Shown here: piece by piece, positions 12,550-13,599 of the stretch
How positions within the stretch are numbered: the first letter of the stretch is position 1
Layout of the letters: each line of letters starts with the position of its first letter
Virus record (IMG/VR): IMGVR_UViG_2565956635_000009
Coordinates: 1-25,288 of that record
Direction: 5' to 3' (one strand)
Length of the DNA stretch: 25,288 bases
DNA from: a virus
Taxonomy: Duplodnaviria; Heunggongvirae; Uroviricota; Caudoviricetes
The notes under the pieces: model-generated
What the model was told of the DNA's origin: nothing
Databases searched by the model: none
Seen by the model: only the letters and a program-made list of their open reading frames with translations
Translations under genes and position numbers: made by a program

Positions 12550-13142
12550 TGATTACCATCCTGACGTTCTTTGAGTCGCTTCCTGGCTGCTGCTATGCGA
12601 TCAGCAATTGTCACATTCACATTAACATCCAGACGTTCTTTGAACGCGTTGACATCAACATGCTTACCAATCAGCTCAAGGTTCTTCACCTTGTCAGGCC
12701 ATTTAATTTTTTTGAGGATTGTCTCTATCGAATCCTCGTTCATGTTCATGATGGTCGATGACAGATCAAAGCCACTAAGCGTAGTGCGCCAGATTTTCGG
12801 CCACTCACGGATTGGTTTAAGGCTCCCATCGTCGTTGAGGATGTCGATCACGTCCATCTGGTCGATCTCCACCAGGCGCATGAGAACGTAATCAGCACTG
12901 ACGCGCATTCGTTTGTTGCGCTCCTCCATCAACTCGGCAATCCGTTTTTGAATGCGTTCATCGCGCATCATGACACTGGCTTTAACTGCCGCTGTATTTG
13001 GGGAGAATCCTGCGTTAATCGCAGCCTGAGTCTGGTTTTCAGGCGTTTTGATGTATGACTGGCAATAAGCCTCCTGCATTGCTGTGAGCGGCTTAAATTG
13101 CGTTGATTTGCGTTTATAGGTTTTAGGTTCAGCAGGCATCAT
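12546..13142 (-). CDS. Terminase small subunit (about 198 aa)
   Basis: Basic, helical DNA-binding-like N-terminus; coupled to terL. Start placed at ATG 13142 (MMPAEP...) with a GGGTGG site; the track's longer N-terminal extension has no ribosome-binding site. Confidence 0.75.
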   Translation of the reverse strand: MMPAEPKTYKRKSTQFKPLTAMQEAYCQSYIKTPENQTQAAINAGFSPNTAAVKASVMMRDERIQKRIAELMEERNKRMRVSADYVLMRLVEIDQMDVIDILNDDGSLKPIREWPKIWRTTLSGFDLSSTIMNMNEDSIETILKKIKWPDKVKNLELIGKHVDVNAFKERLDVNVNVTIADRIAAARKRLKERQDGNQ

Positions 13143-13159
13143 AACCACCCTGGTAATTG

Positions 13160-13174
13160 TTACCGTCGTGGTAA
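13160..13174. promoter_or_regulatory. Operator-like palindrome TTACCGTCGTGGTAA just upstream of terS
   Basis: Perfect half-sites of the TTACC-N5-GGTAA family, 18 nt upstream of the terS ATG; flanked by further GGTAA/TTACC half-sites (13152..13181). Confidence 0.4.
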
Positions 13175-13184
13175 TAGTAACATG

Positions 13185-13211
13185 CAAAATAAAGCCGCCA
13201 TAGTTGGCGGC
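13185..13211 (-). terminator. Rho-independent terminator between the accessory cluster and terS
   Basis: Minus-strand RNA: GCCGCC-AACUAU-GGCGGC hairpin followed by UUUAUUUUG. Confidence 0.55.
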
Positions 13212-13260
13212 AGTATTCAAAACCCATCAAATTCATCATGCATAATCTACTCGTGACATG

Positions 13261-13599
13261 TCACACTATTAATTTCGTTTCATGCCAGCCTTTAGTCACC
13301 CAGCATTGCGAGTCACCATTACACGGGCATGAATTCACAGGAACTCTCTCGCCGCACTTACCGCAACGTTTTCTGCTGATCGATTTTATACGCCCGCGCA
13401 CGCGTACATCATCCTGGCGGATCAGTAACGCGATATACTCACCAAATTCGTAAGGTGCACGCCCGGGGCGACGAGTGGCACAGTTACGCTCCAGCATTTC
13501 AATTTCCTGAGCATCAAGCACAATCTCCAGCTTACGTACACCGGATGCAGCTTGTCTGGCTCTCTGAGCGGCTTTGCGCTCTGCTGCTGATTTAGCCAT
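13261..13599 (-). CDS. Basic zinc-ribbon-like protein (112 aa), candidate late regulator
   Basis: AAGGTG site; ATG overlaps the upstream stop. C-terminal C-x2-C ... C-x-C cluster (CGKCGERVPVNSCPCNGDSQC); highly basic N-terminus. Last gene before the terminator and terS. Regulatory role is inferred. Confidence 0.55.
   Translation of the reverse strand: MAKSAAERKAAQRARQAASGVRKLEIVLDAQEIEMLERNCATRRPGRAPYEFGEYIALLIRQDDVRVRGRIKSISRKRCGKCGERVPVNSCPCNGDSQCWVTKGWHETKLIV

Follow-up and report, generated by a model that had tools for sequence, protein, structure and literature searches.

A predicted repressor-controlled promoter and a gene-boundary palindrome at the junction of the early-right and packaging operons in a phiV10/epsilon15-like prophage

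Introduction

The short intergenic region at positions 13142-13264 of IMG/VR virus record IMGVR_UViG_2565956635_000009 raises the question of how the terminase genes behind it, terS and terL, are transcribed. In the 25,288-nucleotide stretch that we analysed (positions 1 to 25,288 of the record, hereafter the window), three motifs are packed between the gene for a 112-aa protein and terS: a 12-bp palindrome (GTGACATGTCAC), an intrinsic terminator and an inverted repeat of the form TTACC-N5-GGTAA. A preliminary description of this DNA held that no room is left for a conventional promoter between the terminator and terS, that late expression would need regulated read-through or an activator, and that the 112-aa protein is a candidate for the regulator. 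Reading of both strands placed the palindrome at 13253..13264, the terminator at 13185..13211 and the inverted repeat at 13160..13174, as described, with the minus strand as the coding strand. The motifs and the regulator candidate thus stood up to our analysis, whereas the claims about the promoter and read-through did not.

Sequence comparison identifies the window as a phiV10/epsilon15-like (Uetakevirus) prophage and region 13142-13264 as the junction between its early-right and packaging operons. Over 1.6 kb around the site, the DNA is 97-98% identical to that of the phiV10-type phages (O157 typing phages 9 and 10, PAS61 and TL-2011b) and to prophages of 281 complete Escherichia coli genomes (~5% of the complete genomes of this species). 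Prophages of this group are common in E. coli and Salmonella. The gene order of the window, obtained from family scans and the phiV10 annotation, is that of phiV10, and most of its genes are encoded on the minus strand.

We favour, with moderate confidence, a combined reading in which the palindrome is the site of a ribbon-helix-helix (RHH) protein, the terminator ends the early operon and a terS promoter (P_terS) is repressed through two operators, O1 and the weaker O2. Early-right transcription would stop at the intrinsic terminator, and terS-terL would be transcribed from their own compact sigma-70 extended -10 promoter just past the U-tract. In the lysogen, the prophage repressor on O1 and O2 would shut off terS-terL directly, because O1 and O2 are the same operator as that of OL and OR, and loss of the repressor would free the promoter. 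The 112-aa protein, as an RHH/zinc-ribbon dimer, would bind the palindrome at the 3' end of its own gene and the other copies at gene boundaries. The element to which the palindrome belongs, GTGAC-N2-GTCAC, would travel with the 112-aa gene family and mark 3' boundaries of genes or operons (5' boundaries in other phages). Late genes would be kept silent by dispersed operators and not by a lambda-style Q/pR'/tR' switch. We infer the promoter activity and the two protein-DNA contacts from the motifs observed, their statistics, their conservation and their positions.

Copies of the immunity operator upstream of terS

Two copies of TTACC-N5-GGTAA lie upstream of terS. O1 (13160..13174; TTACC-GTCGT-GGTAA) matches the consensus perfectly, and O2 (13142..13156), located 18 bp from O1, is a one-mismatch copy that is built from extra half-sites (TAACCACCCTGGTAA) and lies over the terS ribosome-binding site (GGGTGG, 13145-13150). 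The window contains 10 copies of TTACCN5GGTAA with at most one mismatch (seven perfect and three with one mismatch), where 0.31 would be expected, and none of 100 shuffled sequences reached this number. The shape of the repeat alone is not unusual, since 42 generic inverted repeats of the 5-N5-5 type were found in the window.

O1 is the same inverted repeat as those at 19005, 19717 and 19779, and the site that had been called operator-like does match the OL and OR operators of this phage. OR (18957..19019), located between cro (minus strand) and the repressor gene (plus strand), consists of operators at 18957-18971 (one mismatch) and 19005-19019 with a two-mismatch site between them. OL (19717..19793) consists of two perfect operators (starting at 19717 and 19779) that flank the promoter PL (TTGACA-17-AATTAT). 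The layout of PL is repeated downstream of the replication-gene terminator, where two perfect operators (16612 and 16674, spanning 16612..16688) surround the promoter of a DUF1064 gene, and further operators stand ahead of a tRNA gene (9623) and a moron (10240). All of the perfect copies are intergenic. In phiV10, Enterobacter phage Tyrion and an epsilon15-like (E15-like) Salmonella phage, TTACC-N5-GGTAA is the most over-represented inverted repeat, with 8-11 perfect copies in each genome, and the operators of these relatives are found at OL and OR and upstream of terS, the portal unit, a Bro-type antirepressor gene, the tail-fibre gene, the lysis cassette and int. Judged from these positions, the same operator guards nearly every transcription unit in these phages, and O1 and O2 are copies of the phage's own immunity operator.

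TTACC-N5-GGTAA is presumably bound by the 194-aa helix-turn-helix (HTH) repressor, the cI analogue of this phage, which is encoded at 19075..19659 (plus strand) between OR and OL; its homologue in phiV10 is annotated as having two HTH motifs and similarity to the epsilon15 repressor. The epsilon15-type repressor is only 42% identical to the phiV10-type repressor (PMC9782041). Heteroimmune relatives yielded no usable covariation between operator and repressor, as the E15-like phage has the same half-sites. The paper on phage ZX5 predicted four promoters and described no operators.

The half-sites of O1 are invariant among the relatives, and its spacer varies (ACGAC, ACAAC, ATAAC, AAAAC, ACAAT, TAAAA and others). 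O2 is also retained, with the mismatch moved to the other half-site in the E15-like phage (TTACT..GGTAA), and is degenerate in relatives that carry a umuD-like moron. An alternative is that Cro, a late factor or some other protein binds upstream of terS in place of the repressor, or that the sites there are non-functional hitch-hikers, and the same sites do occur in OR, where a Cro-type protein must act too. We regard this explanation as improbable, because the sites are placed over the -10/+1 region and the ribosome-binding site in the geometry of PL repression, because the half-sites are conserved with free spacers across 20 distinct sequences, and because the perfect copies are confined to intergenic regions.

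The paired operators at PL and at the DUF1064 promoter are exactly 62 bp apart from centre to centre, a spacing shared with phiV10, Tyrion and the E15-like phage, which suggests that the repressor binds cooperatively or forms loops.

A predicted promoter between the terminator and terS

A candidate extended -10 element, TGtTACTAT (13174..13182, minus strand), is located between the U-tract of the terminator and O1. No -35 hexamer accompanies it, and the predicted start site of P_terS is at ~13166-13168 (minus strand). The last T of this element is the first T of O1. The same register of -10 element and operator is found at PL (AATTAT/TACC, the slash marking the end of the -10 element), at the promoter of the DUF1064 gene (TTTAAT/TACC) and at the tRNA promoter. 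At the first two of these, one operator lies upstream of the -35 element and the other starts on the last T of the -10 element (TTGACA-17-AATTAT/TACC and TTGATT-17-TTTAAT/TACC). Operators therefore overlap the core promoter in repression geometry at PL, at the DUF1064 gene and at terS, where the promoter is a predicted one.

This unit of -10 element and operator is conserved upstream of terS. Among 34 loci with a terS homologue (50-100% identity), which represent 20 unique upstream sequences, TGnTAnnAT/TACC is present in all 20 and a perfect operator in 19. The unit is kept regardless of whether a terminator or a umuD-like moron lies upstream of it, and in the five relatives that we aligned, the TG, the hexamer and both half-sites are conserved and changes fall in the 5-bp spacer. 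The conserved start of terS is the ATG at 13139 and not position 13142, since relatives retain only the former. These features suggest that terS-terL have their own repressor-controlled promoter. The statement that there is no room for a conventional promoter is contradicted by the presence of TGnTAnnAT between terminator and operator in all 20 upstream regions. Likewise, the premise that late expression needs read-through falls, because the predicted promoter sits between the terminator and terS, and the unit is also found in relatives that have no terminator there.

The early-right terminator

The hairpin at 13185..13211 (minus strand; GCCGCCA-ACTA-TGGCGGC followed by TTTATTTT) has a stem of seven pairs, six of which are GC, a 4-nt loop and a U-tract, and lies downstream of a gene, as expected for an intrinsic terminator and in agreement with the preliminary description. 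It was also called by the terminator scan, is the dominant hairpin of the RNA fold and is kept in all five aligned relatives. From these features, the terminator closes the early-right operon.

As a candidate for control at the RNA level, we considered an antiterminator in which GUGACAUGU pairs with GCAUGUUAC across the terminator, as in the computed fold. We rejected it and take this pairing as coincidental, because the partner is altered in phiV10, Tyrion and the E15-like phage (GCATGGTAC, GCGTGTTAC). A search against known RNA families (Rfam) matched only the tRNA.

The region behind the 112-aa gene varies among relatives. In Salmonella phage VB_ST_E15, which is E15-like, the early-right terminator is tandemly duplicated upstream of the terS promoter (at the junction of the end and start of the record). 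In many epsilon15-like relatives (locus L020, 10340-10760, and ~25 similar IMG/VR loci), no terminator follows the palindrome, and a promoter with a LexA box and a umuD-like gene are present instead. The LexA box there is canonical (TACTGT-N8-ACAGTA), and the insert separates the 112-aa gene from the terS promoter. In a Yersinia P2-like phage, too, the 112-aa homologue is followed by a LexA box (L079, ~10010-10060).

A palindrome family associated with the 112-aa gene

The palindrome GTGACATGTCAC (13253..13264), a member of the GTGAC-N2-GTCAC family, overlaps the TGA stop codon (13261-13263) of the 112-aa gene. Again, the shape alone is not unusual, as the window contains four perfect 12-bp palindromes where shuffled sequences contain 6.1 +/- 2.4. 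What distinguishes this palindrome is its recurrence. The complete genomes of phiV10, Tyrion and the epsilon15-like phage each contain three copies of the exact 12-mer, apart from a single mismatch in one copy of phiV10. One copy covers the stop codon of the 112-aa gene, another separates the terL terminator from the first reverse-oriented moron, and the third directly abuts the terminator that ends the head/tail operon. Along the local direction of transcription, each copy shows the same order of gene stop, palindrome and hairpin. GTGACATGTCAC is conserved in Tyrion, the E15-like phage and TL-2011b, though its 3' flank diverges.

The element is also associated with the gene in other phages. 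In ~50 of the 70 IMG/VR loci that encode a homologue of the 112-aa protein, the palindrome is located at or near the stop codon of the homologue. The stop region reads ...G-TGA-CATGTCAC in most of the 70 loci; in a divergent subgroup, GTGACGCGTCAC lies 5 nt past a TAG stop, one locus has GTGACCAGTCAC, and the subgroup without a palindrome at the stop still contains copies elsewhere. Among homologues with 35-65% identity, gp46 of N15 has GTGACTGGTCAC over its stop, that of the Yersinia P2-like phage has GTGACGCGTCAC over its stop, and that of Pectobacterium phage ZF40 has a copy 2 nt past its stop, one of three in the genome. Vibrio phage K303, whose homologue is 31% identical, also contains three copies; none of them is at the stop, the nearest being 226 nt downstream, and one precedes the terS start codon by ~20 nt. 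Down to this 31% protein identity, the half-sites do not vary, and changes are confined to the central dinucleotide (AT, CG, TG, CA or AC). Two homologues translate the motif (...VTGH...) instead of using it as the stop, and it is thus selected as DNA. The palindrome is absent from lambda and P2, neither of which has the gene.

A converse sampling gave a similar picture. We chose 80 stretches (on average 9 kb) solely by the presence of the 14-mer TGTGACATGTCACA. One quarter of them (20 of 80, 25%) contain the gene, and 14 of these 20 have GTGAC-N2-GTCAC within 21 nt of its 3' end. In the remaining stretches, the element is located at many different gene junctions, often with its TGA as a stop or its central ATG as a start codon. 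A terminator-like hairpin within 70 nt accompanies 35% of 96 distinct copies and 10% of random positions. Together with the fold predicted for the protein (see below), this distribution suggests that GTGACATGTCAC is probably the binding site of the 112-aa RHH protein.

In a separate group of phages (L009 1312, L006 1985, L005 3093, L044 944 and L012 1273), a copy of the element holds the ATG start codon (GTGAC-ATG-TCAC) of a conserved 77-aa gene (phrog_2479, function unassigned), which is located 7-10 kb upstream of the RHH gene.

Immediately past the element, the sequence is hypervariable, and some phages have a gene between two copies where their relatives have one copy, so the element acts as a module boundary as well. 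One may ask whether it is mainly that, namely, a recombination or cassette joint (G-TGA-C-ATG-TCAC, reading the same on both strands) that serves the exchange of morons and not a regulatory site. The flank may indeed consist of a terminator and terS, of a LexA-box promoter and a umuD-like gene, or of reverse-oriented morons; L006 and L017 have a gene between two copies, as against one copy in L035 and L005; and 83 matches represent 71 distinct flank contexts, in which TGA is often used as a stop codon, ATG as a start codon, or both. However, no dedicated recombinase or nuclease is linked to the element, and the tight linkage to one gene family across podovirus, siphovirus and myovirus backbones is left unexplained. 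In addition, the half-sites are conserved and the centre varies; a non-AT centre loses the ATG, as would be expected of a site that a dimeric protein recognises and not of a coding joint. We therefore consider a pure joint unlikely, although the two models are compatible, because a bound boundary site would also be a safe crossover point.

A role of these motifs in packaging is still less probable, and we give it very little weight. According to this explanation, they would be cos or pac signals with terminase-binding repeats: they lie immediately upstream of terS, which is the position of cosB in lambda, the phiV10 record begins inside the palindrome, and a K303 copy precedes terS. A packaging signal should be unique, whereas all of the motifs here are multi-copy. 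The repeats are the OL/OR operator and occur at at least eight other promoters, and the palindrome has three copies per genome and is also present in N15 and P2-like phages, which have cos elsewhere. The phiV10 record starts directly behind the stop codon of the last gene, by a convention of linearisation, and other records begin at different bases in this region.

The 112-aa protein and the question of a Q-like regulator

The 112-aa gene (13261..13599, minus strand) is the last gene of the early-right operon. Its product is a homologue of phiV10 gp55 and epsilon15 gp49 and belongs to phrog_536, a family annotated as 'transcriptional regulator'. A full-database search yielded 148 clusters with identities down to ~30%. 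The N-terminus is basic, C79 and C82 are invariant, and C99 is present in at least 90% of the sequences. In an AlphaFold model with a predicted local distance difference test (pLDDT) score of 91, a basic helix and an extended segment are followed by two helices and a small Cys ribbon; the protein thus models as an RHH domain with a C-terminal Cys zinc ribbon. No Pfam family, including the RHH models, was reached, and Foldseek, phmmer and profile searches with the family returned nothing significant. The best profile matches in the PDB, to TraR (E=0.22) and YbiI (E=0.33), are not significant and provide no evidence of relationship. The model and the family annotation make the protein a plausible DNA-binding regulator, as had been proposed.

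Three known types of phage regulator were considered and rejected as identities of this protein. No Q family of Pfam or NCBIfam was matched, and the assignment to phrog 536 and the predicted RHH and zinc-ribbon fold differ from Q. The Ogr/Delta proteins are ~70-80 aa long and have a CxxC-N22-CxxxxC finger, and their late promoters have TGT-N12-ACA at about -55; the Cys pattern here is C79-x2-C82...C99 after a predicted RHH domain, and no TGT-N12-ACA site is present upstream of terS. Proteins of the DksA/TraR family have a CxxC-N17-CxxC finger after a long helix. In the 112-aa family, the last CxxC is not conserved, Pfam zf-dskA_traR was matched by none of 41 members, and no match was significant. 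The comparison with the Q, Ogr/Delta and TraR/DksA families that had been suggested thus gave no significant match, and by all of the sequence and model tests applied, the protein is not Q, Ogr or TraR.

These results bear on the model that had been put forward for this locus, in which terS is promoterless, read-through is needed and the 112-aa protein is a Q-like antiterminator or activator loaded at the palindrome. Its gene does occupy the position of lambda Q, the last of the early-right genes just ahead of the late genes. GTGACA is part of the palindrome, and ahead of the terminator a weak GTGACA-18-CATGAT was called by the promoter scan, in an arrangement like that of pR'-tR'. Palindromes are enriched beside terminators (35% versus 10%), with two of the three genomic copies abutting a hairpin, and the best PDB profile matches are to zinc-finger proteins of the DksA/TraR type, among which TraR binds RNA polymerase. 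However, the TraR and YbiI matches (E=0.2-0.3) stand beside an absence of detectable Q, Ogr or TraR families, and the conserved unit of promoter and operator is located downstream of the terminator in every relative. The CATGAT -10 element is deleted in Tyrion and the E15-like phage, and the relatives with the umuD moron have the palindrome and no terminator before terS. Behind terL, the terminator comes before the palindrome when the locus is read in the late direction, and in other phages the elements overlap start codons or sit just upstream of ribosome-binding sites. A Q-like role in read-through is therefore a live rival but a weaker one than boundary control, and we consider the model as a whole to be doubtful.

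As to what binding of the palindrome would do, the candidate effects are a roadblock or insulation, relief of termination, and DNA bridging. Our leading guess, ranked first among these, is control of transcription across the boundary, by which termination would be reinforced or relieved.

Several observations weigh against the combined reading. P_terS lacks a -35 element and its hexamer matches the consensus at only four of six positions, so the promoter may be weak or need a factor. Cro could occupy the same operators. The other late units carry a second motif that terS lacks (CCATATRTGGTT, common to the promoters of the portal, tail-fibre and lysis units), and a further layer of late control is therefore possible. 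For the palindrome, no homologue is present within 60 of the 80 palindrome-containing stretches, in which the gene may lie elsewhere on the contig because the stretches average 9 kb. The distance between palindrome and terminator ranges from 0 to 40 nt, and many copies have no terminator nearby. No covariation between the half-sites and the 112-aa protein was found, because the half-sites never change, and the link between protein and palindrome rests on co-occurrence and the predicted fold. A literature search, which did not extend to the epsilon15 genome paper or the phiV10 paper, returned no start-site, footprint or expression data for any member of the genus.

CCATATRTGGTT may be the site of another regulator. 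It is found 16 times in phiV10, where 5.5 matches would be expected, and lies in or beside the promoters of the portal, tail-fibre, lysis, post-cro and DUF1064 units (in phiV10, L001, at 3307, 20920, 24738, 33134 and 35115). At the lysis unit, it forms a perfect 14-bp palindrome, AACCATATATGGTT. The copies in the window are at 9571-9579, 16632-16640 and 19760-19768 (TATRTGGTT in the minus-strand reading).

Relation to known systems

Like lambda OL and OR, which are bound by CI and Cro, the operator described here is a 15-17-bp inverted repeat that is present in several copies at cI-cro and PL and overlaps the -35 or -10 elements of PR and PL. It differs in that copies are also found on the promoters of packaging, head, tail-fibre, lysis, moron and tRNA genes, that pairs are 62 bp apart at two promoters and that the repressor has two HTH motifs according to the phiV10 annotation. 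Dispersal of operators beyond the immunity region, with one repressor, is known from C1 of P1, CB of N15 and the 'stoperators' of gp71 of mycobacteriophage L5. The present case resembles these in having dispersed predicted operators that include sites before late or structural functions. The L5 stoperators are asymmetric and orientation-dependent and act on elongation, whereas the sites of this phage are symmetric and located on promoters just after terminators.

The order of last early-right gene, terminator and late genes recalls the Q/pR'/tR' region of lambda. Here, in contrast, both a Q homologue and a Q fold are lacking. No promoter is conserved upstream of the terminator, a predicted repressor-controlled one lies downstream of it, and the lysis genes are distal. 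The prophage appears to silence its packaging, virion and lysis genes by an immunity operator on each unit, not by a Q-type cascade, which would bear on the timing of induction, on leaky expression of morons and on the engineering of these phages. PhiV10 is in use as a reporter phage for O157.

The palindrome resembles matS, the site of the RHH protein MatP, which has the sequence GTGAC[AG]N[TC]GTCAC (PMC3603311; for the domains of MatP, PMC12756933). The half-sites are identical, and the centre of the phage element is one base shorter (12 bp with N2 versus 13 bp with N3); all ~130 copies listed from the loci that we fetched are 12 bp long with a 2-bp centre and so differ from the 13-bp matS. 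The phage sites also differ from matS in their location, at the boundaries of genes in a 40-kb genome. Structural matches of the 112-aa model include MatP, over the RHH domain only, and the model has a zinc ribbon instead of the four-helix bundle and coiled coil of MatP. Sequence homology to MatP was rejected, since an hhalign comparison of the family with E. coli MatP was not significant (probability 0.3%, E=0.23). A published survey found no matS in 500 prophages, but the 12-bp form would have escaped that survey. The likeness to matS is hence a resemblance, not membership. Vibrio phage K303 (L080) alone contains in addition, at 19491-19503, one 13-mer (GTGACACCGTCAC) that fits the matS consensus and of which ~0.01 would be expected by chance.

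Small RHH repressors, such as Arc and Mnt of P22, CopG and the ParD and TacA antitoxins, share with the 112-aa protein the predicted beta-alpha-alpha arrangement, a basic N-terminal arm and a short palindromic candidate site. The 112-aa protein has an additional C-terminal Cys zinc ribbon, and its candidate site is at the 3' end of its own gene and not at the promoter. Ogr and Delta of P2 are likewise small Cys-containing phage proteins encoded near late genes. They show no homology to the 112-aa protein, for which an RHH domain is predicted, and their TGT-N12-ACA site has no counterpart upstream of terS. In the Yersinia P2-like phage, the 112-aa family gene is located at the end of the early operon, after gene A, whereas ogr of P2 follows the tail genes.

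Our search of the open-access literature returned no relevant match for the motifs. As a tentative proposal, to which we give rather less than even weight, phrog_536 and GTGAC-N2-GTCAC may constitute an undescribed protein/site system of temperate phages of enterobacteria, Vibrio and Aeromonas. Such a system could be a boundary factor that switches between termination and read-through, or a phage counterpart of MatP/matS that organises or bridges the phage DNA or interferes with the host MatP. The palindrome provides a concrete candidate DNA target for a widespread family annotated only as 'hypothetical' or 'transcriptional regulator', and the matS-like half-sites offer a testable link to the chromosome-organising protein of the host. 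If true, switching of termination and read-through by phrog_536 at boundaries would be a new route to the timing of late genes.

Genome organisation around the locus

The integrase gene (24032-25288, minus strand) is followed by the early-left genes (plus strand), the immunity region described above with cro at 18690-18920 (minus strand), and the replication genes (16726-18323, minus strand). A run of accessory genes then leads to an ASCH gene and the 112-aa gene (13261-13599, minus strand) as its last two members. The terS gene (12546..13139, minus strand), the first of the terS-terL unit, encodes a 197-aa protein (Pfam Terminase_2, E=1e-29; phrog_51) and is followed by terL (11074-12549, minus strand), a reverse-oriented moron and a tRNA-Arg gene, and the portal gene (7632-9311, minus strand), behind which the head and tail genes are located.

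The observation that no lysis cassette is present between the replication and packaging genes was correct, but it is not an oddity of this prophage. In phiV10, the genes for holin, endolysin and Rz are located after the tail-fibre and oac (O-acetylase) genes and before int, so the absence reflects the usual layout of the genus, with a distal late cassette. By analogy, the lysis cassette of this prophage would fall beyond coordinate 1 of the window.

A mosaic breakpoint is located exactly at the start of the 112-aa gene (13592-13954 and upstream). The ASCH and DUF551 genes upstream of the breakpoint are common to Stx-converting and P22-like phages, and the 112-aa gene, the intergenic region and terS are inherited as one block in the phiV10 group.

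Within the O-like replication gene, region 17930-18030 contains tandem direct repeats (TGGGATCATTCAACATCCCGTTTTTGGG, two copies) and clustered half-sites similar to GGTAAC/TTACC, and encodes a peptide repeat (...NGMLNDPKNG...). To judge from the sequence, these repeats are probably iterons of the replication origin.

The reverse-oriented insert between terL and the portal unit (9594-10257, plus strand) stands in place of the terL terminator and the palindrome copy that are found there in phiV10, Tyrion and the E15-like phage. It contains a promoter with an operator (TAGACA-18-AATTAT/TACC, 9594-9637), the gene for tRNA-Arg(TCT) (9960-10036), a strong terminator (10080-10115) and a second promoter with an operator in its spacer (10229-10257), which lies ahead of a 296-aa moron (phrog_4780, function unassigned).

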